Source: a virus
Direction: 5' to 3' (one strand)
DNA length: 63,686 nucleotides
Virus genome (UHGV): UHGV-0312038
The position numbers and the translations under genes are program-made. Position 1 is the stretch's first letter. Every line of letters starts with the position of its first letter. Positions 21,401 through 46,449 of the stretch are shown one piece after another. A model generated the notes under the pieces. That model was not told the origin of the DNA, made no database searches, and worked only from the letters and a program-made list of their open reading frames with translations.

Positions 21401-21975
21401 ATCTCGCTAAGGAAATTCTTCAGACTACCGGTATCGATTTCGCTCCGGAACAGCTCAAAGCCCTGCTTCGCGGATATGCCACGGGCTTCCTGAGATTCAT
21501 CCCCTCATATATCGATGCTGAGAAGAACCCTGCCAACAATCCTGAAAAGGGCATGTACAACAAGCTCGGCCCTGTGGCCTTTGGTCTTGGCGGTACTATG
21601 TACAGAGGTGAGATTACTGACGTAGGCCGCAGTCTGTATGACAGATACAAGGCAGAGATTATGTCCCGTGTCAGACAGGAAGGCGTTGTCCTCAAGACGG
21701 GCAACAGGAAGATTACAGCCAAGCCTGAGAAATATAGAGCATGGCGTATCAGTCAGCTTCGCAATGCCGGATGGGATGACCCTGATATTATAAAGGTTCT
21801 GACTATTATGGATACTGACAACGAAATCAAAAAGGCCCAGCAGGGAACCAAGGAAAAGATTGCCCGTCTGATTGACCTTGACGATGACGAAGGCTTGAAA
21901 GAGCTGTTCCGTGTCCGGTATGAAAATCAGAACAACGCATATAATAGAGCAGTTGCGATACTGTCACAGGAATAA
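18406..21975 (+). CDS. large virion protein (internal/ejection or tail protein)
   Basis: 1189-aa ORF with ribosome-binding site. Confidence 0.55.
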   Translation: MSDCYGSKDVENEMKQDGGGFTQGSFNNAADTDTAEPSVPDAEADVISQKVNTANSINENIGSAPAGGSVRLTQTDEKAIGRMASAYIKEVNKYRENEEKAVVSNFKNLTGRIAKTMNLYTRISSGLARKFTDKMAPVYMFLARTFPVQGRSVMEHPVVSAIQDGLRTVSGLRSGYSEQLDNIRKLTRKYLRDSAISTNKALELIGDRLNLSQMSVHTDIILRNWDRRMQEIKKIAEDEQFEIQNPDANKRHIDLSDEYERLLVNYEWLTANRDSTGPFIYDEKHPTAGLLDNDAAIRDGKIKDLLVQHGISEQQQQEIMSKMAGVIRSSMTDLSKAGQVFPEQIRYFADYDDFVPFASNRDNISRPVTDTDAYLPGNFHQAQGMVNPPVSAWYTIQHFANRAAARVGMSKAAIAMYTAQQAMNSNRRMLSRLKAYNEVVKQGIDPFSKDADKNINARFRNFTADDLAKARDLEKRTKQGGKDTNDYAMTHNPFYSVRWDRLMRMQFSWSEAERNMYYAITSSAAHGGGLSFIAPRINSNGKYVHDKDGNVSYARMFIQFNASYSDEKSNITGTKLNDALTSVLRNDERLNYLAKATALMGHSCTSLNIGFAPCNGARDLMERGVNMANRDYVDSYGQHVPGYKLLAGYVSQLPKAFNAVIHQVTGRLDPNSEYGKYFKEFTDTGLHYTYSRAIGKESTSLINNIDNLNKIYADKKNAQTEKTIDRIASRFGEMRGIVSKWIYAWNDVWNLTPSLAQYVAMRKRSIEPSQTANAVSEVMDQSQTGQYTNALRMFFPFTNPTLQGARAMLRTVGLAPGADGGFHMSYRGMATFVGLTAVGNMLYSFARESLGQDEDTGAYRIDSLPISDLCRYIPIPTNDKGDYFKMPIGFGIAQLASSMAIAMDRMERGIASAEDVMPEFMAAIAKQMSPADAPSYNFSMSPATWLMQVLSPALLRPIEDVAVNRSYKGRPITYYSASEGAYTSAADSGWATTAPVYKNLAKEILQTTGIDFAPEQLKALLRGYATGFLRFIPSYIDAEKNPANNPEKGMYNKLGPVAFGLGGTMYRGEITDVGRSLYDRYKAEIMSRVRQEGVVLKTGNRKITAKPEKYRAWRISQLRNAGWDDPDIIKVLTIMDTDNEIKKAQQGTKEKIARLIDLDDDEGLKELFRVRYENQNNAYNRAVAILSQE

Positions 21976-27450: not shown

Positions 27451-28569
27451 TTAGAAGCTCAGCTCGTCAAGGAGCGCCTGCACATTGTTCGCAACAGGCC
27501 CTTCGTCAGGAGCCGGAGCAGCCTTTGCCGTATTGCGGGAGACAGTCGCAGTCTTGCCCTGACTCATAGCCGCCTCGGCCTGATCCAGCAGACTACGCAT
27601 GGCCGCGTCCTTGACAGGCTCGGCATGGGGAACATCAGCCTTCACTTCCTTCTGTACAGGAGCGGGTTTGCGTTCCTGCACCGGAGCGGCAGGCTTGCGT
27701 TCCTGCACCGGAGCGGCGGGTTTGGGCGCAGGCTTGTGTTCCTGTACCGGAACAGCATTCTCATTATCATCACCGTAAGTAAGCTTCTCCCTGATAGTCA
27801 GAAGCTCACGGGTTCCTTCAGAACAGGCCGTCTCATAGACCTGCGACATAATATCAGGATTAAGGAATGCCAGATGGTTGTTCCTGTCGAAGTAGGGACG
27901 GAACATTACCACACCCGACACAGAGACAGTCGGGTCAAGGACAATCTGCGTCAGGAACATGCTAGGCGTGACCTGAATATTACCAACCGAGTACTGCTGA
28001 CACAGGTCACGAAGCCCAGACCACTTGAACATGTTCTGCTGAGGGAGCCCGTTCCCGTACAGGGACATGGCCGTCACATCCAGAATATAAGGATGGTCAC
28101 AGTCCAGAACATTCGTTCCGTTGAAATTGCGGAGAAGCACGAACGCAAGCCTTTTGCGAATCTGGAAACCCCAGCGGAGCTTGCCGCCACGCATGACCTT
28201 ATGCCTGTATTCTTCAGGCAGGGCATCGGGGAAAACAGTACAGGCAGAGTCAATTTCCCAGATAAGGTCAGGCGCTTCAGGTTCCTGACCGGGGGCATAA
28301 TCACGCTCATACCAGACAGCATAGTTGCTCTTTGCCGCGCCGACAAAGACACCAGCAAGTTCATTTGCCGGAATAGCAGTCGAAGAACCGCCGTCAAGCA
28401 GTTCAAAATCCGTCTTGCGAATCCTAATCCTACGCTGTCCGGCACCGCCCATACCGGCGAAAGCATCCTCATATGACGCCGCAAAGGTCTTGGTAATCTC
28501 TTCAGGGAGCTGAGAAAGACTGGAAGAACTGACGAACATGGAATCCATGGAAACGGGAAGATTAGCCAT
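27451..28569 (-). CDS. putative ssDNA-binding / annealing protein
   Basis: 372 aa. PAPVQE-repeat linker and acidic C-terminal tail ending in aromatic F (LLDELSF), like SSB/gp2.5-type tails. Adjacent to a Gp157-like gene. Confidence 0.3.
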   Translation of the reverse strand: MANLPVSMDSMFVSSSSLSQLPEEITKTFAASYEDAFAGMGGAGQRRIRIRKTDFELLDGGSSTAIPANELAGVFVGAAKSNYAVWYERDYAPGQEPEAPDLIWEIDSACTVFPDALPEEYRHKVMRGGKLRWGFQIRKRLAFVLLRNFNGTNVLDCDHPYILDVTAMSLYGNGLPQQNMFKWSGLRDLCQQYSVGNIQVTPSMFLTQIVLDPTVSVSGVVMFRPYFDRNNHLAFLNPDIMSQVYETACSEGTRELLTIREKLTYGDDNENAVPVQEHKPAPKPAAPVQERKPAAPVQERKPAPVQKEVKADVPHAEPVKDAAMRSLLDQAEAAMSQGKTATVSRNTAKAAPAPDEGPVANNVQALLDELSF

Positions 28570-31869: not shown

Positions 31870-34800
31870 CTAAGCTATGCAGTAATCCTTCCCTATCTCA
31901 GCTTCACATGCGACGGGAAAATCCCCCAGCCAATCCGGTACACTGGACATACAGGACTCCATTACGGACTTCGTATGCTCTGCTTCGTCTTCCGGACAAA
32001 TGGCAAGGAATGAGTCGTGGATATTGGCGATAAGCCGTATCCCCTGTTCTGTCATACGACAAGCCTGCCATTGCAGCAAGGCAAAAGCAAGATACTGACA
32101 CAGATTTTCCGCAAGCGCCCCGCCGTATATCTTTGTCTTCAGCTCCGACTTCCCCTTCACTCTGGTATAATAATACTCCTCCCTGTTGTTCTTCTCAGAC
32201 ACCTCACAGGAAAGTTTGAAATACCTCAGAGTATAATTATTCGGTCCAATGATAGTAGGTACATCGTCCCTCCCGCATATAGGGGCTACGCTGTACTGGA
32301 AGATATTATCATTGGGGCCGCCGAACTCTCCGGAGTACCCAAGGTACATCGCCTTAATGACCGTCTGACACGTATCCCAGAAAGCCACGATGTTCGGATT
32401 ACTGGCACGGTAAACATTGTGAGCATGATGGGCCATCTCATAATGCTGGTCAATGTCACTGCTCAGACGCACACCCTGACGGAGCAAAGTATCCGCGTAC
32501 TTCCTCCAACTAACACCATAGCCGCAATTATGAACTACAAGTGCGCCATGTTTGGTTCGTATGGTAAACCTATGATTCGGCCCCGCATTCAAGAGATCGT
32601 ATACGAGCTCTGAGTTTTTCAACCTCGGCTTGCAGTTCACTGACACGCCGCCTATTGTAGTTATTCTGAGACTTTGTAACAAACCGGAGATTACCCACTT
32701 CGTAGTTGCCATTATTGTCGATACGGTCAAGGTCGAAGTCCGGATTATCCCAGCCATCCAGTGATACAAGGTAGGCAAGAAACGCTCTACGGTCAGCAAA
32801 CTTGCATTGGATTCCACGCCCCCCGTAGTCTTTATATCTTCTACAGTGGGGGTTGTTACAACGCTGCTCAACAGCGGCAATTCTATTGAGCAAGCGTCTC
32901 CTGTGCGCAGGTTCCGGGCAAACGTCCGCGTAAGAGGAGTATAACTTAACATAGCTTTGTGATGACTTCTTCTTGGCGCAGGTGTTACACCGTGTAGTCC
33001 GTCCATTGTGGAGGTTGCTGAACAAGACCCAGTATGGTTCTGCCCCACAGGAACACTGCACCAGAACCATTCTTTCAATACGTTTCGTACCATGTACTCG
33101 TAATCTTGCGGAACGAATGACAGTGAGCTCACCAATCTTTGCACCCGGCTCATAATCTGCATAACGTGGCCTGAAAAACTTGAGATGGCTGGGGTCCCTA
33201 ACGGAGCAATGCTGGCAGGCATCAGTCGGGATTCTCCGTAAAGAGTAGATGCTAATCCATCGTAAAGCTCCACACTTGGAGCATTCGCATAAGTATCGCC
33301 CCCGTCCCCTATCATCGAACGCCATATCTCTAATGATGCGGCCCCTGTACAGAGTGCCCGGCTCAAGTATGAGCGTGTCTGAACGCACTCGCTTGCCTGC
33401 TTCCATGAAGAACCGCTTAAGATCATATGGTCTGGGGTCATCCTTACTCCATCCACATCTATTGTGTTCTTCTCGCCATTGCATATAAGTCCTTGATGAG
33501 TTACCCATTGTACACCATCCCACAATTTATCATCTTTCGACACCATAACTATGGGCTTCCACCCATTATTTGTCAATACCTCCGTATCACCTGCAAGGCA
33601 GGAAAGAATACCAGTTTTGCCAACGTTCCTGTACGCTTTCAGTTTCTTGTCTCCGGACTTAGCGCCCTTATGAATCTTCTCACTCGGAATCTGGAAAATC
33701 TTTTCAGCAAGGTCAGCGTAAGGGTCAGCCCCTCTCCTGAACGCGTCAACCAGCTCAGTCTCGTTAGCGACATAAGCAAGAATGCGCGCTTCAATCTGGC
33801 TTGAGTCGCAGGCCACAAGAGACATCCCCTCCGGTGCCTGTACTGCTTTCCTCAAAGTAAGCTGACTCGGGTCACGCTTGCTCAGGTTCTGAAGATTGAG
33901 CTTGTCACTGCTCCCCTCGGAGTTGCCAGCCGTATAACGTGACGTGTGAGCCTTGAACGCATTGAGCATAACGGGCATCGCCCTGCCGCTTTTAGCCAGA
34001 GCATGGAACGTCTCAGCCCTTGACCTCTGGATACTGGAGTTGTTCTCCAGTCTCGTCCGGACAAGAAGAGCCACGCACTCATCAGCGTCAGAAGCCATGG
34101 CCACGAAATCCAAATCAGACTTAGCCAGAGCCGGAGTATAAACCGCGTAATCCTCTTCGCTAAGATTAGTCTTCCCCTCGGCTTCCAGCTTTTTCCGCTT
34201 CGTCTCTGACTTCGCCACGCTGTATTTCATCGGCGGCTTGCGCCCGAGAAGCTCAAGCATCTTAACGAAAGAGGCGGAAGAACGAATCGCCTTCAGGAAG
34301 TCCTCATCCGATTTGAACATGAACATCCTGTTAATATCATTACGCGCCTTAGTGACCTTATCTGAAAGCTCGTTCAGGTACGCGGTAAGCATATCATCAT
34401 CAAGCCTGAGTACAGGATTGCATGCCATCTTGGCAGTTATAGAACTGAAGAGCAGGGCATCAGCAGTCACGAAAGGAAGCATGGCTTTAAAGCTCAGGAA
34501 ACATTGCTCCGTATCATTGCGGCAGTACTGGATGAATGCTGTACGTTCGTCAGGCGTGAAATCGTCCGGCCACTTCCGGCCGTCTGAAATCACCGTACCT
34601 TCCACCTTCTCGCCACACTGGAAAAATTTTGCCATGGATTTCAGTGACTCATTCTGGATTCGTGATACCCCTGTCCACCGTTCCATGCACATGGTATCTA
34701 TAGCAATCCTCGGAACCACATGGTAAATCTCGGAAAGAATAAGGAAGTCAAACCCATTCCCATTGTGGGCAACAGTCACCACGTCCGGGGCATCGAGCTT

Positions 34801-35004
34801 AAGAGCAGCAAGCACGGCGGGGATATTATCGTGTTCCGCTACCCGTACCTTATCGTATGTCATCGTACTGGCATCCGTGACAATATAACTCATGAGCTGA
34901 GCGGAAAACCTGCTGTCCCTGATATATGATATGGGGCCGATTTTTGACAGTGTATAATTTTTACTGTCCCAGTACGTCTCAAAGTCCAGTACAACAATTC
35001 TCAC
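31870..35004 (-). CDS. family-A DNA polymerase with 3'-5' exonuclease domain, interrupted by an intein (precursor 1044 aa)
   Basis: Exo I motif VLDFETY. Motif A LVACDSSQIEARILAY. Motif B KAYRNVGKTGILS / CGYGVSWRKYA split by the intein. Motif C IANIHDS. Confidence 0.8.
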   Translation of the reverse strand: MRIVVLDFETYWDSKNYTLSKIGPISYIRDSRFSAQLMSYIVTDASTMTYDKVRVAEHDNIPAVLAALKLDAPDVVTVAHNGNGFDFLILSEIYHVVPRIAIDTMCMERWTGVSRIQNESLKSMAKFFQCGEKVEGTVISDGRKWPDDFTPDERTAFIQYCRNDTEQCFLSFKAMLPFVTADALLFSSITAKMACNPVLRLDDDMLTAYLNELSDKVTKARNDINRMFMFKSDEDFLKAIRSSASFVKMLELLGRKPPMKYSVAKSETKRKKLEAEGKTNLSEEDYAVYTPALAKSDLDFVAMASDADECVALLVRTRLENNSSIQRSRAETFHALAKSGRAMPVMLNAFKAHTSRYTAGNSEGSSDKLNLQNLSKRDPSQLTLRKAVQAPEGMSLVACDSSQIEARILAYVANETELVDAFRRGADPYADLAEKIFQIPSEKIHKGAKSGDKKLKAYRNVGKTGILSCLAGDTEVLTNNGWKPIVMVSKDDKLWDGVQWVTHQGLICNGEKNTIDVDGVRMTPDHMILSGSSWKQASECVQTRSYLSRALCTGAASLEIWRSMIGDGGDTYANAPSVELYDGLASTLYGESRLMPASIAPLGTPAISSFSGHVMQIMSRVQRLVSSLSFVPQDYEYMVRNVLKEWFWCSVPVGQNHTGSCSATSTMDGLHGVTPAPRRSHHKAMLSYTPLTRTFARNLRTGDACSIELPLLSSVVTTPTVEDIKTTGGVESNASLLTVERFLPTLYHWMAGIIRTSTLTVSTIMATTKWVISGLLQSLRITTIGGVSVNCKPRLKNSELVYDLLNAGPNHRFTIRTKHGALVVHNCGYGVSWRKYADTLLRQGVRLSSDIDQHYEMAHHAHNVYRASNPNIVAFWDTCQTVIKAMYLGYSGEFGGPNDNIFQYSVAPICGRDDVPTIIGPNNYTLRYFKLSCEVSEKNNREEYYYTRVKGKSELKTKIYGGALAENLCQYLAFALLQWQACRMTEQGIRLIANIHDSFLAICPEDEAEHTKSVMESCMSSVPDWLGDFPVACEAEIGKDYCIA
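32527..33600 (-). mobile_element. class-1 intein (358 codons) inserted in polymerase motif B
   Basis: N-terminal CLAGDTEVLT (block A), TPDH (block B). C-terminal VYDLL...ALVVHN followed by +1 Cys. The flanks rejoin into a canonical motif B. Confidence 0.65.
32570..33523 (-). CDS. HNH homing endonuclease encoded out of frame inside the intein
   Basis: 317 aa in a different frame from the polymerase. Several CxxC zinc knuckles and DRIDNNGNYEVGNLRFVTKSQNNYNRR (HNH_3-type signature). Confidence 0.7.
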   Translation of the reverse strand: MGWCTMGNSSRTYMQWREEHNRCGWSKDDPRPYDLKRFFMEAGKRVRSDTLILEPGTLYRGRIIRDMAFDDRGRGRYLCECSKCGALRWISIYSLRRIPTDACQHCSVRDPSHLKFFRPRYADYEPGAKIGELTVIRSARLRVHGTKRIERMVLVQCSCGAEPYWVLFSNLHNGRTTRCNTCAKKKSSQSYVKLYSSYADVCPEPAHRRRLLNRIAAVEQRCNNPHCRRYKDYGGRGIQCKFADRRAFLAYLVSLDGWDNPDFDLDRIDNNGNYEVGNLRFVTKSQNNYNRRRVSELQAEVEKLRARIRSLECGAES

Positions 35005-35936: not shown

Positions 35937-36606
35937 ACCCTACGAACATCCGCTTGGGAAGCCAGCGTCCGCATTCATACCGTGCCATACAGCGCATGAG
36001 TTCCGGAAGCCTCTCCAATACATGGAACGGTTCGTTTACCCCGAGCTTCATCTGATGCGACAGGAAGACAGTATAGTCTTTCTGGTCTGATGTCGAGAAT
36101 CTTTTTACTATTTTTGCCAGTGTGTCTTTGTCATGCCTGATATAGTATGCCGTTAATATGTGGGCGGCGGCACGTATGCCGTACTCAGGCGAAGAGAAAA
36201 TGACAAACCCTCTTCTGTCCACACCAACCTGCCCTTTCCATTTCTGCCCGCCCGGCAGAGCTTTGATGTTCAGGAAGTTGACGTTCTTATCAGCCAGCTT
36301 GTTGTCAGGTTTGAGCCCGTCATGCTTAGCGATATAAACAGGGACTTCCTTAATCTCAGTATGGATGCGCTCCACGACAACGGGCTTTCTCGCTTCCGCA
36401 ACAGATGAGTCCTGTACCATTATGGCTATGATACAGATTGTCAGAACAAAAGCCAGAAGCCCGAGTTCACAGGCCACCTCCAGTTTGGTAAGCGGCATCT
36501 TAAGGTCTGCAATAAACTCTTTAATCATTCTCATCATCGCACTCCTCCCACTCACCGTTGTTATTCTTACGGACTTCGACAAGCAGATCGAACGGGTCAA
36601 ACTCAT
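35881..36606 (-). CDS. membrane-anchored hypothetical protein
   Basis: 241 aa. N-terminal transmembrane segment LLAFVLTICIIAIMV. Confidence 0.45.
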   Translation of the reverse strand: MSLTRSICLSKSVRITTVSGRSAMMRMIKEFIADLKMPLTKLEVACELGLLAFVLTICIIAIMVQDSSVAEARKPVVVERIHTEIKEVPVYIAKHDGLKPDNKLADKNVNFLNIKALPGGQKWKGQVGVDRRGFVIFSSPEYGIRAAAHILTAYYIRHDKDTLAKIVKRFSTSDQKDYTVFLSHQMKLGVNEPFHVLERLPELMRCMARYECGRWLPKRMFVGYDIASASYRLGKERKSAD

Positions 36607-36730
36607 CCGACCCCCACTCTTCCTCTGACATACTGCGCCAGTCTCTGACCCAGTTTTCCTCCGTGTCGATGGAACCCGTGGCCGTGTTCATAAGATACTT
36701 TTTCATATCGTTTGCCTCCTTTTGTTTCAC
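36521..36730 (-). CDS. small highly acidic protein
   Basis: 69 aa. D/E-rich (EEEWGSDEFDPFDLL...EWEECDDEND). Confidence 0.35.
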   Translation of the reverse strand: MKQKEANDMKKYLMNTATGSIDTEENWVRDWRSMSEEEWGSDEFDPFDLLVEVRKNNNGEWEECDDEND

Positions 36731-36780
36731 TTATTTCATATCCCGTTAGGTGTCAACACCTAACGGGATATTTATTTACT

Positions 36781-38511
36781 TTAGATACGCAGAGCTTCCC
36801 CAAGCAAACCAAGCAGAGCCGCCGGAATCGCACTGTTCTGACGAACTTCTCTGAAATGCTTCCTGCCCATGACGCCACCGATATAACTACCGCTGTCTCC
36901 AATGCCGAGGCCATACACCTCAACGGCATTTTGTTCCGCCCTGTCCAGAGCAGAAGACAGAATAGGCAGGTCATCAGCCATGCCGTCAGTCAGTATGATA
37001 ACAACATGACGACGTGCCTTCTCCGTGAAGCAGTCCAGTACACGCATCAGCGCGCTACCGAGGAATGTGCCGCCGTTCGCCTCCATCCTTGCCAGTCGTA
37101 CCGGAGGCACCGAAGTATGCATATCTTTTACTGACTCCATAGTCGAGTTGAAAGACATGATACCCACAGCACAGCCACGGATATTCTGTGTGGCCTTCAC
37201 GATAGCATACACGGTCTGGTTAACCGTAGAGATACTGTCCCCGTACATTGACCCGGACGTATCCACAAGACATATGATTTCCACATCCGGAGTCCGTCCC
37301 GGTATATCATGACGGAAAATACGGGCATCACCGACAGCGGGACGATACAGCCTATGGTTATCAATCCTTGTTCCTACTGACCCAGTGCCACGTTTGACAA
37401 GAGAACGGGTCTGAAGAACGGACGACATCCGGCTGGCAAGCTGGACAGCCATTCTGTCACCGAAGACAATATCATCCTGCGACAGCGGATTACAACCAGC
37501 AGCCTTTCTTATAGTCATACTACGACATCCCGTATATTTATAGACGTCATTACTTGGAGCAATCTGGTTAGCGATAGCCTTACCAATATCAAGCTTACGC
37601 TGTATGTCCTCCACTCCAGAACTATAATAGCCATGACCAGCGTTAATACTCGCGGCCATATCCTTCTTCATTATCTCCCACATTTCTCCGGGGGTTATAT
37701 TATCGCTGCCAACCTGCTCTTTTGCTATCTTGTTGATGGCCTTATCAAGCTTCTTCTTTAACGAAGCGGCATACTTCTGCTCTGCCTTAGTGAGCGGTTT
37801 ATGACCAGACTGACTGTCCTGACCCTGACCAGACTGACTGTCCTGACCCTGACTATCCTGCTGACTCTGCTTCTCGCCATACTCCTGCTTATAGGCAGAA
37901 AGAATAAGAGCCTCCATTTCTTCAGCAAGGGACAGGCACTCATCTGAGTTTTTCGTCACAGCCGAACGGGCTATAAGCTTATCAAGTTCAGGAAGAATAC
38001 TGGGCCACGGGAACGCGTCCCGCAGAACCGCCGCCTCCGGTCTGAGTTCCTGTACGGGAATACTCCTGCACCCATACAGGATATAACTCAGTGCCTGTTC
38101 AAGCACAGGCTCACTGGTAGTGGGCTCTATCTTCCCACGGAACAGTATGATAGCAATACGCCGTAAGTTCTGCCCGCACCCCCTGAACGCCGCAGACATA
38201 CGGCGTTCTATATACACATCCTCGCAGATGTTCCAGAGAGTCTTCACAAGATAGGCTTGCTGCACTCTGACGTTAGTAAATATTTTTCTGTTCGTATACC
38301 GGACATGCCCAGCCTCATGGTCAATATACCCACGAAGCAGCACCTCCTGACCACGCTCAGCAGTGACAAGCGGCAGATTAATTATAGGACTCTTACCGCT
38401 GTAATCTGTAAAGGCACCTGTGCCTGACACCTGTACCTTAACGCCGTATCTTACCCCCAACATGGACGCAAGCTTTGACATTGATGTTATAAAAAGGCCA
38501 TTCTCTGACAT
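36781..38511 (-). CDS. vWA-domain protein with N-terminal HExxH (zincin-like) motif. CobT/NorD-like partner of the AAA+ ATPase.
   Basis: C-terminal vWA with MIDAS motifs (LVDTSGSM, GGTFLGSA, ILTDGMADD). N-terminal HEAGH with a downstream Glu (NICEDVY). Q/S/G-rich linker. 576 aa. Confidence 0.65.
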   Translation of the reverse strand: MSENGLFITSMSKLASMLGVRYGVKVQVSGTGAFTDYSGKSPIINLPLVTAERGQEVLLRGYIDHEAGHVRYTNRKIFTNVRVQQAYLVKTLWNICEDVYIERRMSAAFRGCGQNLRRIAIILFRGKIEPTTSEPVLEQALSYILYGCRSIPVQELRPEAAVLRDAFPWPSILPELDKLIARSAVTKNSDECLSLAEEMEALILSAYKQEYGEKQSQQDSQGQDSQSGQGQDSQSGHKPLTKAEQKYAASLKKKLDKAINKIAKEQVGSDNITPGEMWEIMKKDMAASINAGHGYYSSGVEDIQRKLDIGKAIANQIAPSNDVYKYTGCRSMTIRKAAGCNPLSQDDIVFGDRMAVQLASRMSSVLQTRSLVKRGTGSVGTRIDNHRLYRPAVGDARIFRHDIPGRTPDVEIICLVDTSGSMYGDSISTVNQTVYAIVKATQNIRGCAVGIMSFNSTMESVKDMHTSVPPVRLARMEANGGTFLGSALMRVLDCFTEKARRHVVIILTDGMADDLPILSSALDRAEQNAVEVYGLGIGDSGSYIGGVMGRKHFREVRQNSAIPAALLGLLGEALRI

Positions 38512-38522
38512 GATACACCTCC

Positions 38523-39614
38523 TTAAAACTCCTCCTCATCGTCATCGTAGCCCAAAATAATGGGCTGGTTTCGCCCAGGTTCCTGTACAGACTCAGGTTC
38601 GGGTTCGGGTTCGGGTTCCTTCTTACCAAGCTTCTCCTGAAGCTCTGCAAGCAGACGCTCAAGCTCAGTCCGCCTGTCTTCCACAGGTTCCGGTTCAGGT
38701 TCCTTCACAGGTTCCGGTTCAGGTTCCTTCACAGGTTCCTGTACAGGTTCCTTCACAGGTTCCTGTACAGGGACAGGGACAGACATGACCCCGCCAGAAG
38801 AAAGGAACGTATCCAATGACGCAGGGTCAGACATAACATTAAGCAAACTCTTAAGGTCATTAATCCCCTCGTTGCTGTTACGCGCCTTCTTCACAGCGTC
38901 ATCCAGAGCGGCAATGACAGGCCCCACAAGGGGAAGTGTAATCCTGTACCCCTCAAGCTTCCCCCGCAGGGACTCCATGCCCTTAAGCTTGAAGCCAAAC
39001 ACGCTGGACTTCGGCTCAATAATCTCATACTGCCGCTTGGCAAGAGCGGCAATCTCATCAGTGAACGCGCTGGACAGCACCCTGCCAAGCGGCGCACTGC
39101 CGTTGTTACATGCCTCCGGGTCAAGAGCGTACTCGTACCAGTCATACGAGTACCGGGAAGCAATGTCCCCAGCCGTAGGAATGGCGGAAGAGATAGCGAA
39201 CTTCCACTTGTCTGGCGTCTGTGCCAGCCACTCCTCAACAGCCTTGGGAAGACCGCTGAGAATAGCCCTGACAGCCGCTTCAAAGTCAGTCTTGTCCGCA
39301 TGCAGGAAATCCTCCACCTCCTGTATACGAACCTTAGGAATCAGGAACCCGCCGAGGAAGTGCGTCCCGACACGCACAAGGCTGTTCCATGTACGTGAGC
39401 GTATAATCCCAGGCTCACGCAGATAGTCCTTAGGCAGGAGCTGTTTGCTCCCGAGCTTCGCCAGATAGTCTGGCGGCAGATTCTTCTGTACTTCCGGGGG
39501 GAAGTCGCCCGCAGTAAGCTTTGACATGCCTGTCCAGACCTTAATCTCAGGCATGATAATCACAGAAGAAGAGACAACATCTTTAATATTTACAATCATT
39601 TTAAACCTCCACAC
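38523..39614 (-). CDS. acidic-repeat protein encoded between the AAA+ and vWA genes
   Basis: 363 aa. PVQEPVKEPEPEP repeats and a DDDEEEF C-terminus. Confidence 0.5.
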   Translation of the reverse strand: MWRFKMIVNIKDVVSSSVIIMPEIKVWTGMSKLTAGDFPPEVQKNLPPDYLAKLGSKQLLPKDYLREPGIIRSRTWNSLVRVGTHFLGGFLIPKVRIQEVEDFLHADKTDFEAAVRAILSGLPKAVEEWLAQTPDKWKFAISSAIPTAGDIASRYSYDWYEYALDPEACNNGSAPLGRVLSSAFTDEIAALAKRQYEIIEPKSSVFGFKLKGMESLRGKLEGYRITLPLVGPVIAALDDAVKKARNSNEGINDLKSLLNVMSDPASLDTFLSSGGVMSVPVPVQEPVKEPVQEPVKEPEPEPVKEPEPEPVEDRRTELERLLAELQEKLGKKEPEPEPEPESVQEPGRNQPIILGYDDDEEEF

Positions 39615-40633
39615 TACTCAAGCACGTCATCATCAGAGCCAGACCCGGACTTACCATCCGCCGTGCCCATAACGTCTTCACCAAATATACGGGACGCCAT
39701 CTCCAGTATGGCAACCCTGTCTGACACGGAGCACGAGTTCAGTAACGCGATGTCCAGCCCGGTACGGAGAGGACTGGGGCCGTTCGGGTCAGCCATGGAT
39801 GACACGGCATTTGTCCATTCGGCCCATTGCACGAGTGTTCTCGTGCTGAATGTCTTGGCAACGGGCACGCCTTCCCCCGTACCGACATTCGCCGCCCTTA
39901 CCGATGCCGCAAGGGAGACCATATTCCCGACAACATCGTCCGGAATACTGCCCTTATGGTGGGAAACAATAGATACTTCTGTATCCTCATCGAGATACCC
40001 GGCCTTAATGACCGAGAACCGGTCAATCAACGCCATGTTCTGAACGAGTACTCCGGTATACATACCGGAGTCATCACCGCCGCCATTACTGTTAGCCGTG
40101 GCGATGAACCGGAACCGCTTGTGCGGACGGATAATCTCACCCCCATTCTCAGGGATAATGAGAGGCGACCCATCTAATATAGTGTTAAGCCCCACCGCAA
40201 TAGAGGGGTCTAACAAATCAATCTCGTTGAGCAGGAACAGCCCGCCGTCTCTCATCGCGAGAGACAGAGGCCCGTACTGGAAAGACATACTCCCATCTTT
40301 CATCATGGACAGATGCCCGATAAGGTCAGCCATTTCAAGGCGCCCGTGAGCGGTACACTCATACACGGGCCAATTAGCCCTTGCCGCCACCTGCCTGATG
40401 GCGGACGTCTTGCCACATCCGGAGGGGCCAGTAACGTACAACGCTCCTAACCGGGCACTGAAACGGAGCCACTGTGCAAAGTATTTCTTCGCCCAATCGG
40501 GCAGAACGTAATCCTGCCTGACCTCGGGCGTATAATCCCCCGGCTTGTCATACCCGGGGAACTTCTGACCGTTAGGCTGACCATTCAGCACAAAACCCAT
40601 ATCCAAATAACAGGCGCGAACTTCATTAGTCAT
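39614..40633 (-). CDS. MoxR/CobS-type AAA+ ATPase (AAA_5 class)
   Basis: Walker A GPSGCGKTS. Walker B-like LFLLNEIDLL (Asn in place of the Walker B Asp, Glu retained). RFRFIATANS. 339 aa. Confidence 0.75.
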   Translation of the reverse strand: MTNEVRACYLDMGFVLNGQPNGQKFPGYDKPGDYTPEVRQDYVLPDWAKKYFAQWLRFSARLGALYVTGPSGCGKTSAIRQVAARANWPVYECTAHGRLEMADLIGHLSMMKDGSMSFQYGPLSLAMRDGGLFLLNEIDLLDPSIAVGLNTILDGSPLIIPENGGEIIRPHKRFRFIATANSNGGGDDSGMYTGVLVQNMALIDRFSVIKAGYLDEDTEVSIVSHHKGSIPDDVVGNMVSLAASVRAANVGTGEGVPVAKTFSTRTLVQWAEWTNAVSSMADPNGPSPLRTGLDIALLNSCSVSDRVAILEMASRIFGEDVMGTADGKSGSGSDDDVLE

Positions 40634-40650
40634 TTTACTTACCTCTTAAT

Positions 40651-41445
40651 TTAGAATGCTATTATTTTTGTTGCGTATGCGGCCATGGGATGGCCGTATT
40701 TTCTCAGGCTGCGCAGAAGCGAGTACAGCGCCAGTACGTAATTACAGTTTGCAAATGTAGTGCTTCTGATAATGTCCCGAAGATCCACCACCGTAAGAGA
40801 CAGACCCTCACGACCCACAGTAGTAATGCGGGCCAGCGAGTCACGGTTATTACGGAATGGAACTGTACAGGAATACTCTGGGAACACCCTGTACAGATGC
40901 TCCAAGTCCCGCAGGCTCATTTGTCCATAACCGTACCCGTACAGCAGATGCATAGCCATGAACCAGTTGTACCGGGACGTATCTTCCATAGCGTCCTTAT
41001 TAATACTCATTGGCAAACTGAGCATGACCATCATCTCAGCGACACGGACAAGCCCCTGCTCGCTGGTCACAGCTGAATGATAACGGGCCCTCAGATACTG
41101 GAGCAGGGCAATACCCCGTACCTTCGCAATGCCCTTGTCATTACGGAGATAGGATGTGAACCTGTCTGCCATCTCACGGGTTAATCTGCCAGCCGTTACA
41201 GGCCTGAACCTGTCAGACCCGACCGGGCTCTTAAGCCAGTCGAGCATACTCCTAAGAACGGTAAGCGGATACTTCGCATGATACCTATCAAAGATGAGTT
41301 CAAAGAATGCAGCAGGGAGAAGACAGCGGTCTTTGAACATAAAGTTCAAAGCCCATGCAAACGCAATCCTCTTGTACCTGCTCCCGGTTTTCCCCCTGTT
41401 GCACACGAGCCAGTGAACAGGGAAATGTTCAGAATCAGTAATCAT
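40651..41445 (-). CDS. hypothetical protein, paralog B of a tandem pair
   Basis: 264 aa. Shares AWALNF, IALLQY, SRYNWFMA and LYSLLR.L.K..PMA.YA.K motifs with the upstream gene. Confidence 0.5.
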   Translation of the reverse strand: MITDSEHFPVHWLVCNRGKTGSRYKRIAFAWALNFMFKDRCLLPAAFFELIFDRYHAKYPLTVLRSMLDWLKSPVGSDRFRPVTAGRLTREMADRFTSYLRNDKGIAKVRGIALLQYLRARYHSAVTSEQGLVRVAEMMVMLSLPMSINKDAMEDTSRYNWFMAMHLLYGYGYGQMSLRDLEHLYRVFPEYSCTVPFRNNRDSLARITTVGREGLSLTVVDLRDIIRSTTFANCNYVLALYSLLRSLRKYGHPMAAYATKIIAF

Positions 41446-42218
41446 CTCACCATCGCTTTAATGGCATAAAATGCCATTGGGTTGTCTGTTTTGTATAACG
41501 CCCGCAGCAGAGAGTACAAAGGCAGGGCCCTGTCCGCATCTGTACGGGTCATGATAAGCATAGCCTCCTGTACATCAGCGGTGCTCATGCCAAGCGCCTG
41601 ATAGCCAGACACAATCAGCTTACTGACCTTTTGATAATTGGCACGTACAATGTCCAGCTCCCTCCACTTCCGAGGCAGAAGAGCATACCGCCGTTCCAAA
41701 TCCCTAAGGTTCAGCGGCCTTGTCTCATCCGCATACAGAAGCTGTAAGGCCATGAACCAGTTGTACCGGGACACGTCCTGTACAGCAGACGACACGTTGT
41801 CAGTATTGTAGTTGTTATCAAACCGTACAAGCAGGTCAGCCAGAACAGCCCTCCTGTCCGCGGAGATAATTGAGACGTGAACCCGATACCGGAAGTACTG
41901 AAGTAGGGCAATCTCCATACCGGAAGCGATGCCTGTACAGTTGAAATAGACACTGGTTATCTCCGCTTTCTCTCGGGTTAAATCATTATCCAGTACAGAC
42001 GCAAACGCGCCCGCCCCTTCCGGGCGGCCAAGCCACTCCTTAACCGCCTGTACCCGCTCACTTGGATACGTATATCTGTACCCCATTGGGTCGGGGTACA
42101 GCCTGTAGCCACTGAACAAAAAGTTCAGCGCCCATGCGTTGGCTATACCCCTGTAGAATACCACGTCCGTTTCTCCACGATGAATGAGTTCGTGGATTGG
42201 GTACTGGCTTACTCCCAT
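41442..42218 (-). CDS. hypothetical protein, paralog A of a tandem pair
   Basis: 258 aa. 4-nt overlap with the downstream paralog. Confidence 0.5.
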   Translation of the reverse strand: MGVSQYPIHELIHRGETDVVFYRGIANAWALNFLFSGYRLYPDPMGYRYTYPSERVQAVKEWLGRPEGAGAFASVLDNDLTREKAEITSVYFNCTGIASGMEIALLQYFRYRVHVSIISADRRAVLADLLVRFDNNYNTDNVSSAVQDVSRYNWFMALQLLYADETRPLNLRDLERRYALLPRKWRELDIVRANYQKVSKLIVSGYQALGMSTADVQEAMLIMTRTDADRALPLYSLLRALYKTDNPMAFYAIKAMVR

Positions 42219-43739: not shown

Positions 43740-43751
43740 AATTTCCTCCTG

Positions 43752-43825
43752 TATTTTTGTTTGGGAAAAATCCTATATTTTTGTTTAGGAAAAATCGACT
43801 ATTTTTCCCTGCGGAAAAAGAGGGA
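43752..43825. promoter_or_regulatory. operator/promoter-like direct repeats upstream of the leftward operon
   Basis: Two 22-bp direct repeats (tatttttgtttgggaaaaatcc / tatttttgtttaggaaaaatcg) plus a degenerate third. Each has ATTTTT...GAAAAAT dyad symmetry. Confidence 0.4.
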
Positions 43826-43842
43826 AATATGTGTGGACTGTC

Positions 43843-44020
43843 CTGTACTGGACACTGGACGGGACAGCTCGGGGCAGTGGACAGTGGACAGAGGGACTGT
43901 CCAATAGTGGACAACGGGACACTGGACGGGCCATCCTGTACTGGACAGAAGCGGCTCGGGACAGTGGACACGGCGGCTGGACAGTGGACGGGACAGAGTG
44001 GACAGAAGTACTGTCCCTAC
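43843..44020. repeat. iteron-like array of about 20 copies of (G)TGGACAG
   Basis: For example ggcagtggacagtggacagagggactgtcc... The same 8-mer recurs through 44040-44160. Confidence 0.7.
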
Positions 44021-44169
44021 TCTAGAATACTAAGAGTAACTCTTGCCTCTTTTTAGTGGACAGAAGAAGTCCAATAATTTCAAGGGGTTACAAGCTCTCT
44101 GTCCAGCCCTGTCGTGGATTGCCAATTAAATCAGCGGGTTACGCGAACGGGTGGACAGAGCTCCGGAAA

Positions 44170-44280
44170 ACACACATATATATTTATATAATATATTTAT
44201 ATGTTTTCCCCCTCCTCCTGACCCCTCTATATTATATATATATTTTTTTTACTGTCCAAATAAAATAAATATATAGTAAT
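44170..44280. repeat. AT-rich tract, candidate DNA-unwinding element
   Basis: cacacatatatatttatataatatatttatatg ... ctctatattatatatatatttttttt. Confidence 0.5.
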
Positions 44281-44400
44281 TAGAGGGAAAAAAGTACAGG
44301 ATTTCAGCCACTTAGAAAATCACTGAATTTTTCCCAAGTGGCAATACTGGACAGAGTCGAAAAGAGTAAGTGATAACCCCTTGATTTCATTGAACTTTTT

Positions 44401-44476
44401 TTGTCCAAGGTGGACAGACTTCTGTCCACTCTGTCCACTTGCTCTGTCCACCCGCTGTCCACCCATTGTCCAGCGC
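44401..44476. repeat. five tandem CTGTCCAC iterons in inverted orientation relative to the left array
   Basis: ttctgtccactctgtccacttgctctgtccacccgctgtccacccattgtcc, with roughly 10-11 bp spacing. Confidence 0.7.
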
Positions 44477-44640
44477 AAAAATAAATACAGTATTTATTTT
44501 TCGGGCGTGAAAAATACCAGAATTAATTTTGCCACCCAGAAAAAATACCGTATTTATTTTCAGGCTGGAAAAATACGCCAATTAAAAATATCAGAATTAA
44601 TCCCGCCACCCGAAAAATACCTGATTTATTTGGACAGTTC
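44471..44640. repeat. alternating palindromic (AAATAC-N-GTATTT) and roughly 28-bp direct repeats
   Basis: aaataaatacagtatttattt; aaaaataccgtatttatttt; and two copies of aaaaatayCagaattaatyyygccaccc. Confidence 0.55.
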
Positions 44641-44774
44641 CGGTACAGAGATGCACCGGAACTGTCCCGCCCGTTTTGGCAGTCGGGCAAATGATGAATT
44701 TGCCGGTGCACTCATCCCAGTTACTGGCACACATGTGGACACGTGTATGCCTTTAGATTAAGAGCTAATTAAAT

Positions 44775-44796
44775 GGATAGGGTATATACCCTATCC
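44775..44796. promoter_or_regulatory. perfect 22-bp palindrome GGATAGGGTATATACCCTATCC
   Basis: Seen directly. The half-site AGGGTAT/ATACCCT recurs at 45632-45647. Confidence 0.4.
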
Positions 44797-44820
44797 ATTA
44801 CTAGACCACTAATAAATGGG

Positions 44821-44838
44821 TTGGGGATTTCTCCCCAA
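44821..44838 (-). terminator. hairpin (ttgggga-ttt-ctccccaa) downstream of the minus-strand gene 44847..45347
   Basis: 7-bp stem followed on the minus strand by cccatttatt. Confidence 0.35.
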
Positions 44839-44846
44839 CTCATTCC

Positions 44847-45347
44847 CTACTTCATAAGCTCGGAGAGCTTACGGAGGAAGACCGATTGGTCTTCACTTGA
44901 GAGCCTTGCATAGGCTTTCAGAAGAGCTTCTACCTTATTTAAGTTTTTCGCTACGTAGACGAAAATTTCATCCAGCAGCTTGACACGATTCATAAGGTCT
45001 TTCTTCTCGGGTGCCGACGCCTTAAGCTCTTTATCGGTGCGGTGCTCTACATAGTGGAGCATCTTTCCTTTTTTGACTTCCGACTTCTTCTCACCGAAAA
45101 GAAGGAAGGTGAGCTTCTTACGGGATTCGGCAGCTATCTTACCGCCGATAAGGCGGTAAGCTACGCACAGGTCTTCGATATCTTCGACCGAGCCGCGGTT
45201 TGCGATCCGATTGAAGGCCTTGACTTCCGCACGGGTAAAGACACGGGCAAGACCGGCCTGGACCCTTGTGGCGGCGAAAATTTCCGCACCAAACTCCCTG
45301 TTGTGAAATTTCTTTACGAAAGTAGCACGATTTTCAGACTTAGCCAT
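44847..45347 (-). CDS. hypothetical protein sitting between the two repeat-rich non-coding regions (possible regulator)
   Basis: 166 aa, K/E-rich. Confidence 0.45.
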   Translation of the reverse strand: MAKSENRATFVKKFHNREFGAEIFAATRVQAGLARVFTRAEVKAFNRIANRGSVEDIEDLCVAYRLIGGKIAAESRKKLTFLLFGEKKSEVKKGKMLHYVEHRTDKELKASAPEKKDLMNRVKLLDEIFVYVAKNLNKVEALLKAYARLSSEDQSVFLRKLSELMK

Positions 45348-45399
45348 TTTATACTCCTATCTGATCTTTACTTGTTTTTTGTTTTTGCTGTTCTCGGCT

Positions 45400-45870
45400 A
45401 GTTCCCTGCATGTCATAGTGCATCCGTACCGGTAGAGGCTATCGTCTTGTATAGGGGGACATGGGAGTAGTCCTGCCGTGCCTCCTCCGCGGGACGGAGG
45501 GCAAGGGACGGCTAGGGTCTCATATCATATGCAAGAAACCGGAGCCACGGTGATTTTGCGCGCAGTACCGCCTGGGTACCTGCGGGCTTATCGGGTGTCC
45601 GTGTACTCTGATAGCATACAGGCCGTGATACCCTAGAGGGTATGCAGGTCCGTAGTCATACTCATGTACTGCACGGCATGCCATCAGCACGTAGTAGCCT
45701 GCCATCGGCCACCTATGCTGTACCGGCACAGTACGTCCTTCTATCCCTATGGAGCGGGGCGCTTTCACCCGCAGCTCAGCTTATCGCACATCAGTGCCTA
45801 TCCCAGGCACGGGCGATCACCGTATGATAGTGAGCTTATGCACTTGAGGGGACTACCCCTCTGTCTGTAC
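45400..45870 (+). ncRNA. candidate structured non-coding RNA (GC-rich, ORF-free, many palindromes)
   Basis: About 470 nt with no convincing ORF in any frame and dense local inverted repeats. An intrinsic terminator follows on the plus strand. Confidence 0.25.
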
Positions 45871-45871
45871 T

Positions 45872-45916
45872 GACAGTATAGCGCTTTTCGCTTTATACTG
45901 TCAACGACTTTTTTTT
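45872..45916 (+). terminator. hairpin plus T8, intrinsic-terminator-like
   Basis: gacagtatagcg-cttt-tcgctttatactgtc stem, then aacgac and TTTTTTTT. Confidence 0.45.
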
Positions 45917-46010
45917 ACTTTTTACCTCCGGTGTACTGTCTTAGTGGGTGGGGGCTTATCCCCCGTCTTTCGATAGATACTTTATACGCCCATCCATGGG
46001 GTAGGTCAAG

Positions 46011-46050
46011 GACTTTTTTGACTTTTTTCTACTTTTTTCTACTTTTTTCA
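46011..46050. repeat. four tandem roughly 10-bp T-tract repeats (ACTTTTTTCT); predicted intrinsically bent DNA
   Basis: gacttttttg acttttttct acttttttct acttttttca. Confidence 0.6.
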
Positions 46051-46105
46051 CGGTGGCGGGTGGCGGGCGGTGGCGGGCGGTGGCAGGCAGGGCGGGCGGT
46101 GGCAT
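46051..46105. repeat. G-rich roughly 10-bp tandem repeats (GGTGGCGGGC); possible G-quadruplex motif
   Basis: cggtggcgggtggcgggcggtggcgggcggtggcaggcagggcgggcggtgg. Confidence 0.6.
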
Positions 46106-46270
46106 CAGCTTATCTATATATCCACATATTCATATATCTGCATATGTGCATATGTGCATATCGATATATCTGCATATTCACATATTCATCTATTTAAATA
46201 TAAGCATATCCACATATCTGCATATCAGCATATCCACATATCCACATATCCACATATCTGCATATCAAGA
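46106..46270. repeat. about 20 copies of an 8-bp repeat (yyrCATAT), including several DnaA-box-like TATCCACA(T) units
   Basis: catatccacatatccacatatccacatatctgcatat etc. ATATCCACA matches the TTATCCACA consensus at 8 of 9 positions. Confidence 0.6.
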
Positions 46271-46449
46271 TAGCCTTATATAGGGCGGGGCCTTTGGACG
46301 GCCGGCTCGCTTCGCTCGCTAGAGTAGACCTTATATATGTGCGGACACATCTCGGTCCCCCCACCCATATTGGACAGGCCCCCCATATTTATCCAGAAAA
46401 GTCTTGACTAATTTTTTACTATGCTGCACAGTTTCAACAACATTTCCAA

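Follow-up and report, generated by a model that had tools for sequence, protein, structure and literature searches.

What role a MoxR-class AAA+ ATPase, and a partner protein joining a zincin-like domain to a von Willebrand factor A (vWA) domain, may play in a phage is the question raised by a minus-strand locus (positions 36781-42218) of UHGV virus genome UHGV-0312038, the 63,686-nucleotide stretch of DNA that was analyzed here at its full length and is referred to below as the window. The genes for these two proteins enclose a third one, coding for a member of the DUF3150 family, and the resulting triad is preceded by two tandem paralogous genes. We report here that the triad, and not the five-gene block, is the conserved module, that the same three families occur in the same order in conjugative plasmids and chromosomal conjugative elements, and that, tentatively, they may constitute an ATP-driven remodelling or cleavage machine of mobile elements rather than a cobalt chelatase.

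The triad and its genomic setting

The window is the genome of a tailed phage, encoding an internal virion protein, tail-fibre domains, a primase-helicase, an SNF2-type helicase, DNA polymerase A and NrdD, and its phage origin is backed by the existence of near-identical viral contigs of 60-64 kb, one of which is named 'Podoviridae sp. ct2iq11'. No nucleotide match to the five-gene block was returned by megablast against 50,697 GenBank phage records. A previous reading of the locus, made from the sequence alone (hereafter the sequence-only reading), had placed five tightly packed open reading frames (ORFs) on the minus strand, and all five are present exactly where it put them: paralog B (258 aa; 41442-42218), paralog A (264 aa; 40651-41445), the MoxR-class ATPase (339 aa; 39614-40633), the DUF3150 protein (363 aa; 38523-39614) and the zincin-vWA, or CobT-like, protein (576 aa; 36781-38511). 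Taken in order from paralog B to the vWA gene, the junctions consist of a 4-nt overlap, a 17-nt gap, a 1-nt overlap and an 11-nt gap, and such tight spacing suggests that the five genes may be translationally coupled. From the position of the block, just downstream of a divergent non-coding region at ~43.7-46.3 kb, we infer that it lies near the start of a leftward 'early operon'. The triad lies within this DNA-metabolism operon, with DNA polymerase A, helicase and primase genes nearby and four small genes between it and the downstream DNA polymerase A, and apart from the identified virion genes, which are located in a plus-strand block at ~5.7-24.3 kb.

Sequence features of the three proteins

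Assignment of the ATPase to the MoxR class, already proposed in the sequence-only reading, is backed by Pfam AAA_5 (72.4 bits against a cut-off of 22; 5e-20) and by the CbbQ_C lid (28.9 bits against a cut-off of 20.6), and both of the motifs on which that proposal was built are present, namely the Walker A sequence GPSGCGKTS (40406-40432) and a Walker B sequence, LFLLNEID (40220-40243), in which Asn replaces Asp. Walker A is intact and the catalytic Glu invariant across the ATPase homologs compared, while the Walker B Asp is Asn in this clade. The resulting hhhhNE pattern is common to the window, its sister phage, the IncC-type island and Allochromatium plasmid pALVIN02, and must hence be regarded as a feature of this clade and not as noise; the homologs from Pseudomonas and pMT1 have DE. 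Among solved structures the best match of the ATPase is to the AAA domains of Midasin (7e-47), followed by CobS (6e-29), CbbQ and NorQ. Family databases label it otherwise, since PHROG 249, 'porphyrin biosynthesis', matches it at 1e-55 and TIGR01650 CobS is its top NCBIfam match; the latter score (100.8 bits) lies so far under the equivalog cut-off (558.55) that the protein can be described as CobS-like, but not as CobS.

The product of the middle gene belongs to the Pfam family DUF3150 (PF11348), with 118.5 bits against a cut-off of 24.9 (E=4e-34) over positions 5-236 of the 257 in the model. An AlphaFold2 (AF2) model of this protein, based on 87 diverse homologs, reaches a predicted local distance difference test score (pLDDT) above 85 at residues 10-160 and stays mostly below 50 at residues 277-362, save for one short helix at 313-328. 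Its globular domain (~38877-39563) is followed by a disordered linker of Pro/Glu repeats (~38559-38786) and by an acidic-aromatic C-terminal tip, GYDDDEEEF (38526-38552). The PVKEPEPEP repeats and DDDEEEF tail noted in the sequence-only reading can thus be confirmed, the former being visible as tandem repeats in the DNA itself (a 24-nt unit repeated 3.8 times at 38682-38771 and a 6-nt unit repeated 3.8 times at 38596-38618). Structure searches with the AF2 model indicate that the globular domain is not an oligonucleotide/oligosaccharide-binding (OB) fold, and returned no match to a DNA-binding fold and no detectable STAND-like or VMAP fold. In a Foldseek search against predicted viral structures, a few remote proteins with the DUF3150 fold were found in uncultured phages. 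A DUF3150-like fold in Mycobacterium phage Dylan was dropped as a candidate; the gene that follows the AAA ATPase in the related Finemlucis has no sequence similarity to DUF3150.

The third protein matches Pfam VWA (46.9 bits, 5e-12), the Pfam CobT N-terminal region (31.2 bits, 2e-7) and two PHROGs, 1576 and, over residues 63-112, 459 ('peptidase'). It comprises an N-terminal zincin-like domain (~37912-38511) with the motifs HEAGH (38305-38319) and NxxEDxxIE (38206-38232), a Gln/Ser-rich repeat linker that includes a 24-nt repeat (37802-37853), and a vWA domain (~36892-37281) with the sequence DTSGS (37249-37263) of a metal ion-dependent adhesion site (MIDAS). The alignment of the zincin-like domain drew on homologs from two sister phages, the IncC-type island, Allochromatium pALVIN02, a Pseudomonas MOBH plasmid, a Vibrio plasmid and Yersinia pestis pMT1, and residues H65, E66, H69, N94, E97, D98, E102 and G111 are invariant in the 8 homologs (22-60% identity). 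The combination HExxH...NxxED...E is the signature of a putative gluzincin-like metallopeptidase with a predicted downstream acidic ligand. Similarly, D417, S419 and S421 (DxSxS), the Thr of GGT and the Asp of TDG, which make up the MIDAS, are invariant in 6 homologs. The sequence-only reading had recognised both the N-terminal HEAGH...E motif and an intact MIDAS in the C-terminal vWA domain, and had allowed that the first might be unconserved noise in an ordinary CobT; conservation of HExxH, and of the gluzincin-like residues as a whole, across the 8 homologs shows that it is not noise, and no match to a CobT equivalog was found in NCBIfam, where only a weak hit to the putative cobaltochelatase family TIGR02442 (17.4 bits against 779) was obtained. 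A profile search of the N-terminal domain gave no match among the sequences of solved structures. This domain does match a jumbo-phage protein, from Ralstonia phage RsoM2USA, and the vWA protein aligns with the 598-aa homolog encoded by the IncC-type island at 26% identity (E=4e-29).

Distribution of the triad

The configuration of genes, which the sequence-only reading had reported as one it did not recognise, turns out to have precedents: the same set of AAA_5 ATPase, DUF3150 and zincin-vWA proteins is encoded by conjugative plasmids and chromosomal conjugative elements, and the ATPase/vWA pair has been described in jumbo phages. DUF3150 matches 891 plasmid records, 838 of them conjugative, while the ATPase and the zincin N-domain match 4,634 and 1,903 plasmid records, respectively. 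Carriage by a phage is therefore what is unusual about this ternary MoxR-vWA system, the set itself being already present on conjugative elements.

Linkage within the set is strict. In all nine of the non-phage loci with a DUF3150 gene, the zincin-vWA gene comes immediately after it, and the tight association of the middle gene with the ATPase/vWA pair postulated in the sequence-only reading extends to every relative examined, in none of which is it separated from the vWA gene. In eight of these loci (L001, L002, L003, L017, L018, L020, L021 and L022) the ATPase gene lies upstream of DUF3150; in the ninth (L019) the 8 kb read upstream contained no ATPase gene. In the Pseudomonas MOBH plasmid the triad is contiguous, whereas in Allochromatium pALVIN02 the ATPase is followed by a 107-aa gene, a layout shared by a chromosomal conjugative element (L017). 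Five conjugative elements, the IncC-type island among them (L001, L018, L020, L021 and L022), have a cassette nested between the ATPase and DUF3150 genes, which is made up of RecT or Bet, a YqaJ exonuclease and a hypothetical gene, and in three of the five also includes ssb. Beyond the module, the triad of L017 is followed by ArdA and two Antirestrict (KlcA/ArdB-type) genes, with a Toprim gene also among its neighbours, orphan DNA methylases stand ahead of the DUF3150-vWA genes of L019, with an NYN gene also nearby, and the flanks of other conjugative elements include RadC (pALVIN02), TraN and TraU, and Toprim primases.

A reduced form of the system is present in Y. pestis pMT1 (L008) and in Rhizobium phage RHph_N2_6 (L024), where the pair of zincin-CobT-like and AAA genes is reversed, lacks DUF3150 and lies close to or adjoining dnaE. 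The CobT-like protein of pMT1 bears the same HExxH...NxxED motif, and the 'porphyrin/cobalamin biosynthesis' label given to such pairs of phage-plasmids and Rhizobium phages is probably wrong. Proteins of SSU5 also match the ATPase and the zincin N-domain. As for DUF3150, tblastn against the 50,697 GenBank phage records detected it in no cultured phage, the sole match being a Salmonella genomic island misfiled there. A profile scan of IMG/VR, made restrictive by its use of back-translated patterns, identified the phage group of the window and a single 4.3-kb contig, which also encodes a CobS-like ATPase.

Acidic-aromatic tails

The acidic-aromatic tip of the window's DUF3150 protein is representative of the family at large, in which the terminal residue is Phe in 79 and Trp in 11 of 112 proteins (90/112, 80%), typically after an acidic run (e.g. 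...DDDGDYFF, ...EDEDAFF or ...DDDDWAW). The linker ahead of it is highly variable in length and sequence, and the tail is nonetheless kept. A similar ending, x-[FY]F after an acidic or polar residue, is found on a protein unrelated to DUF3150, here termed 'X', the gene for which directly follows the AAA ATPase in six conjugative-element loci (L001, 8905-9813; L018, 4560-5486; L020, 2765-3448; L021, 1887-2396; L022, 4508-5083; L002, 5602-5925) and the products of which, five of the six being mutually homologous, end in sequences such as ...EQEDHFF, ...VEDCFF, ...EPSMFF and ...GDNFYF. A hidden Markov model of the 'X' proteins found no homolog in the window. The occurrence of similar tails on DUF3150 and on an unrelated protein of the same loci points to a shared docking peptide.

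Two paralogs outside the module, and divergence between sister phages

Paralogs A and B are 35% identical over their full length (E=2e-42), and the AWALNF, SRYNWFMA and LYSLLR motifs that the sequence-only reading had seen in both are invariant in the alignment of the family. No match to either was found in Pfam, PHROGs, NCBIfam or PADLOC, and a profile search of 1.84 billion representative proteins gave 14 matches, all the significant ones of which belong to the phage's own lineage or to fragments of it. Paralog A may accordingly be described as a lineage-restricted ORFan, predicted to be all-alpha, and paralog B as its tandem duplicate; the AF2 model obtained for a paralog (pLDDT 49) is unusable.

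The comparison with ten related phage loci, two of which (L004 and L015) are separate retrievals of one 60,931-bp contig, places both genes outside the module. The triad is kept in all ten, contiguous and in the order AAA, DUF3150, vWA. The paralogs, by contrast, number two in L009 and L014, one in L010 and L013, and one plus a 44-aa remnant in L011; L012 retains only a 15-aa remnant, and L004, L005 and L015 have none. Paralog B, in particular, is found in L009 and L014, is absent or a remnant in L010-L013, and is absent from L004, L005 and L015. Since zero to two copies occur among relatives that all keep the triad, the paralogs are best seen as dispensable extras in a variable slot, and the proposal of a five-gene unit does not hold: in close relatives that retain the triad they are absent, single, chimeric or reduced to remnants, and no homologs were found outside the lineage. 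The chimeric form, a single paralog with a B-type N-terminus and an A-type C-terminus, occurs in some related phages (P0219, P0223, P0228 and P0230) and is consistent with the product expected of unequal recombination between tandem copies.

The triad itself diverges markedly between sister phages. Against L004/L005, the DNA polymerase exteins of the window are 95-98% identical and most flanking genes 84-95%, whereas identity falls to 72-74% for the ATPase, 55% for DUF3150 and 46-48% for the vWA protein. This unusually fast divergence reflects either accelerated evolution or allele replacement at the locus.

Proposed role and alternative explanations

In the CbbQ-CbbO, NorQ-NorD and CobS-CobT systems and in Midasin, an AAA_5 ring acts through a vWA adaptor, the MIDAS of which grips an acidic residue of the client. 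By analogy with these systems, we tentatively favour the view that the triad is a three-protein, ATP-driven remodelling or cleavage machine of mobile elements with an early role in establishment, replication or anti-defence. The AAA_5/CbbQ_C ATPase would act as the ring motor and the vWA protein as the adaptor, its MIDAS metal site gripping an acidic residue of the client, which the zincin-like N-domain of the same protein might then cleave or process. The DUF3150 protein would be a dedicated third subunit, serving as adaptor, regulator or primary client, and may dock by its acidic-aromatic tip, borne on a long disordered linker. We infer from the same analogy that the three proteins form a complex, that the N-domain has protease activity and that the tail has a receptor; the presumed target would be a host or nucleoprotein factor, remodelled or removed early, upon entry of the element's DNA or at the start of its replication. 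The gene neighbourhoods point to a possible role in establishment, replication, recombination or counter-defence, and are compatible with the host-remodelling or anti-defence function suggested in the sequence-only reading. Moreover, the presence of an intact triad in the replication operon of a tailed phage argues for involvement in a step common to all invading DNA, such as establishment, replication or counter-defence, and makes a function in vitamin synthesis, or in conjugative transfer as such, less likely.

Several points weigh against this proposal. The triad proteins have no meaningful match among PADLOC defence families, those of the ATPase having E-values of at least 0.015 and the single match of the DUF3150 protein (E=2.5e-4) falling in its low-complexity linker. 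No function for the triad was found in the literature searched, in which a single preprint names DUF3150. The Asn in Walker B could make ATP hydrolysis slow or regulatory, and the divergence between sister phages could stem from recombinational allele replacement rather than from an arms race. Finally, the DUF3150 protein of the sister phage clade has no aromatic residue at its end (...GYDDEED), and the aromatic tip is therefore not strictly required in phages.

The alternative that survives best is that of a dedicated anti-defence system, in which a host immune protein would be broken down or taken apart and DUF3150 would serve as decoy or sensor. The location of the triad near the start of the leftward operon, the ArdA, KlcA-type and orphan methylase genes that flank it in conjugative elements, its far faster divergence than that of the backbone between sister phages, and a three-part design like that of conflict systems made up of MoxR, a vWA-peptidase and a third component (PMC7159879; PMC12839542) all speak for it. 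Nonetheless, the module is not mentioned in a Nature 2024 survey of plasmid leading regions, and the RecT/Bet-YqaJ cassette found inside the triad in five of the nine non-phage loci, with SSB in three, points at least as strongly to DNA metabolism. As a separate explanation we regard it as possible but doubtful, and it overlaps the proposed remodelling or cleavage machine rather than excluding it.

In a further alternative, the triad would be a replication or recombination accessory: by mimicking the C-terminal tip of SSB, the DUF3150 tail would attract the interaction partners of SSB on single-stranded DNA, or compete for them, and the resulting complexes would be recycled by the AAA+/vWA pair. 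DUF3150 is indeed laid out like SSB, its globular domain being followed by a disordered linker and an acidic tip with a final Phe, an SSB-RecT-exonuclease cassette is nested in the module in many elements, and the pair or triad lies near replicative polymerases (DNA polymerase A; dnaE) in phages and phage-plasmids. Attractive as the idea is, it seems unlikely, given that the acidic-x-[FY]F consensus of the tip is not that of the SSB tips in the same elements (DDDIPF or DDQIPF), that the DUF3150 model neither adopts an OB fold nor matches a DNA-binding fold, and that the sister phage clade dispenses with the terminal aromatic residue.

The conserved domain architecture would also accommodate a chaperone or protease of virion assembly, as proposed for the MoxR and metallopeptidase-vWA proteins of jumbo phages and for the MoxR-vWA proteins of Acidianus two-tailed virus. 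The same architecture has been given such a role by Iyer et al. 2021 (PMC7824862), and the match of the N-domain to the protein of Ralstonia phage RsoM2USA is in line with it. This explanation is nevertheless very unlikely for the window, because the phage genes sit in the leftward DNA-metabolism operon, and not in the plus-strand virion block, and because plasmids and conjugative elements, which form no virions, carry the same triad as part of their backbone. Lastly, a genuine cobaltochelatase CobS/CobT pair, serving as an auxiliary metabolic function that raises host B12 synthesis with the host's CobN, is improbable in the extreme, for although PHROG 249, TIGR01650, the Pfam CobT N-terminal region, CobS structures and cyanophage and Rhizobium phage homologs annotated as CobS/CobT all suggest it, the equivalog scores fail for both proteins, Midasin AAA domains outscore CobS, no CobN-like ORF was found in the window (its two largest ORFs have no CobN family match, and one contains an LPD38 domain), neither the conserved zincin motif nor the DUF3150 partner has a role in chelation, and the context is one of DNA metabolism, the closest homologs lying among the ssb, bet, exo, anti-restriction and tra genes of conjugative elements. 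The 'porphyrin/cobalamin biosynthesis' labels that databases attach to the triad genes are probably misleading.

The favoured ATP-driven machine can be given a more specific, and distinctly speculative, form, which we consider rather unlikely as a whole: from IncC plasmids and SXT-type elements to phage, the triad would be a widely shared 'establishment machine', an ATP-driven, MIDAS-guided metalloprotease or segregase for which clients or adaptors are marked by an acidic-aromatic, degron-like tail, and which clears a host factor, SSB-associated or immune, from incoming or replicating element DNA. In that case, its occurrence in a phage would mean that the function is not tied to conjugation. 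IncC-type multidrug-resistance plasmids and SXT/R391-type conjugative elements have the triad as a conserved part of their backbone, and the phage copy, together with the conserved tail, provides testable leads on a module of clinically important plasmids that is still uncharacterised. Experiments could start from the conserved zincin motif, from the MIDAS site and from the acidic-aromatic tail, which two otherwise unrelated partner proteins have in common.

Other features of the window

Directly downstream of the vWA gene lies a minus-strand ORF (36521-36730) for a very acidic 69-aa protein (...EWEECDDEND), which is present in all related phage loci at 61-100% identity. Between the two genes, 10 nt past the vWA stop codon, a perfect 15-bp hairpin (36738-36771) is not a canonical intrinsic terminator of the minus-strand operon, because only on the plus strand is it accompanied by a T-run; it could form an RNA structure within the operon or act as terminator for the opposite strand.

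Further along the operon, DNA polymerase A (31870-35004, minus strand) carries an intein of ~358 aa, extending from the Cys of 'CLAGDTEVL...' to '...VVHN' and followed by Cys, which is absent from the polymerase of the sister phage (686 aa), with flanking extein parts 95-98% identical. The replication operon also includes a 372-aa ORF (27451-28569, minus strand) in which PVQE(R/H)KPA repeats accompany a globular N-terminal part and the C-terminus reads ...LLDELSF, a layout like that of SSB or gp2.5; it has no Pfam, PHROG or solved-structure match, and was rejected as a DUF3150 relative, not being homologous in spite of its similar linker. On the plus strand, in the block of the internal virion protein, a 1189-aa ORF (18406-21975) contains LPD38 ('large polyvalent protein-associated domain 38'), and the neighbouring 1019-aa ORF has no family match.

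The ~2.5 kb of non-coding DNA between the divergent operons (43750-46300), where GC skew changes sign, are rich in repeats: GTGGACAG-type motifs at 43835-44016, repeats beginning with AAAAATACC at 30-nt spacing (44480-44631), three copies of GGCGGGCGGTGGC at 46051-46104 and an array of ATATNNNC with an 8-nt period at 46102-46297. This region is possibly a replication origin or an early promoter region.

Comparison with known systems

Five known systems resemble the triad to different degrees. The AAA domains of Midasin/Rea1 are the top solved-structure match of the ATPase (7e-47), and this protein, too, has an AAA_5 motor together with a MIDAS, by which a client is gripped at an acidic residue and extracted; Midasin is, however, a giant eukaryotic protein in which six AAA modules lie on one polypeptide, has no peptidase, and is not homologous to DUF3150. 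The ternary conflict systems of MoxR, vWA-peptidase and VMAP (iSTAND) proteins described by Kaur et al. 2020 (PMC7159879) and in PMC12839542 follow the same three-part logic, with a MoxR ATPase, a vWA-peptidase fusion and a dedicated third protein. The third protein of the window is DUF3150, with no detectable STAND-like or VMAP fold, and the window does not belong to the VMAP/iSTAND systems; in addition, its peptidase is a zincin N-terminal to the vWA domain and its carriers are mobile elements, whereas VMAP systems serve in the host defence of multicellular bacteria.

The CobS/CobT proteins of aerobic cobaltochelatase, and the pairs of SSU5, pMT1, Rhizobium phage and cyanophage, also consist of an AAA_5/CbbQ_C ATPase and a vWA protein with a CobT-like N-region, from which the window differs by scores far under the equivalog cut-offs, by the presence of a DUF3150 partner and in that no CobN-like ORF was found in it. 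Another such pair is the one reported by Iyer et al. 2021 (PMC7824862) in group 2.2 jumbo phages, for which a role in virion assembly was proposed and in which a MoxR-class ATPase is likewise accompanied by a vWA partner fused to an N-terminal zincin-like metallopeptidase domain; no DUF3150 third gene is described for that pair (PMC7824862), and the genes of the window lie in a DNA-metabolism operon.

IncC (IncA/C)-type plasmids, related islands and other MOBH/MPF_F-type conjugative elements share with the phage all three families in the same order. The phage differs from them in being a ~63-kb tailed phage and not a conjugative element, in having a contiguous triad without the nested SSB-RecT-exonuclease cassette or the 'X' gene, and in its linkers, which are short Pro/Glu repeats unlike those of the conjugative-element set. 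Identity between the two sets amounts to 44% for the ATPase, 26% for the vWA protein and ~21-26% for the DUF3150 domain, and both present the same HExxH...NxxED motif, MIDAS, hhhhNE Walker B and acidic-aromatic DUF3150 tail.

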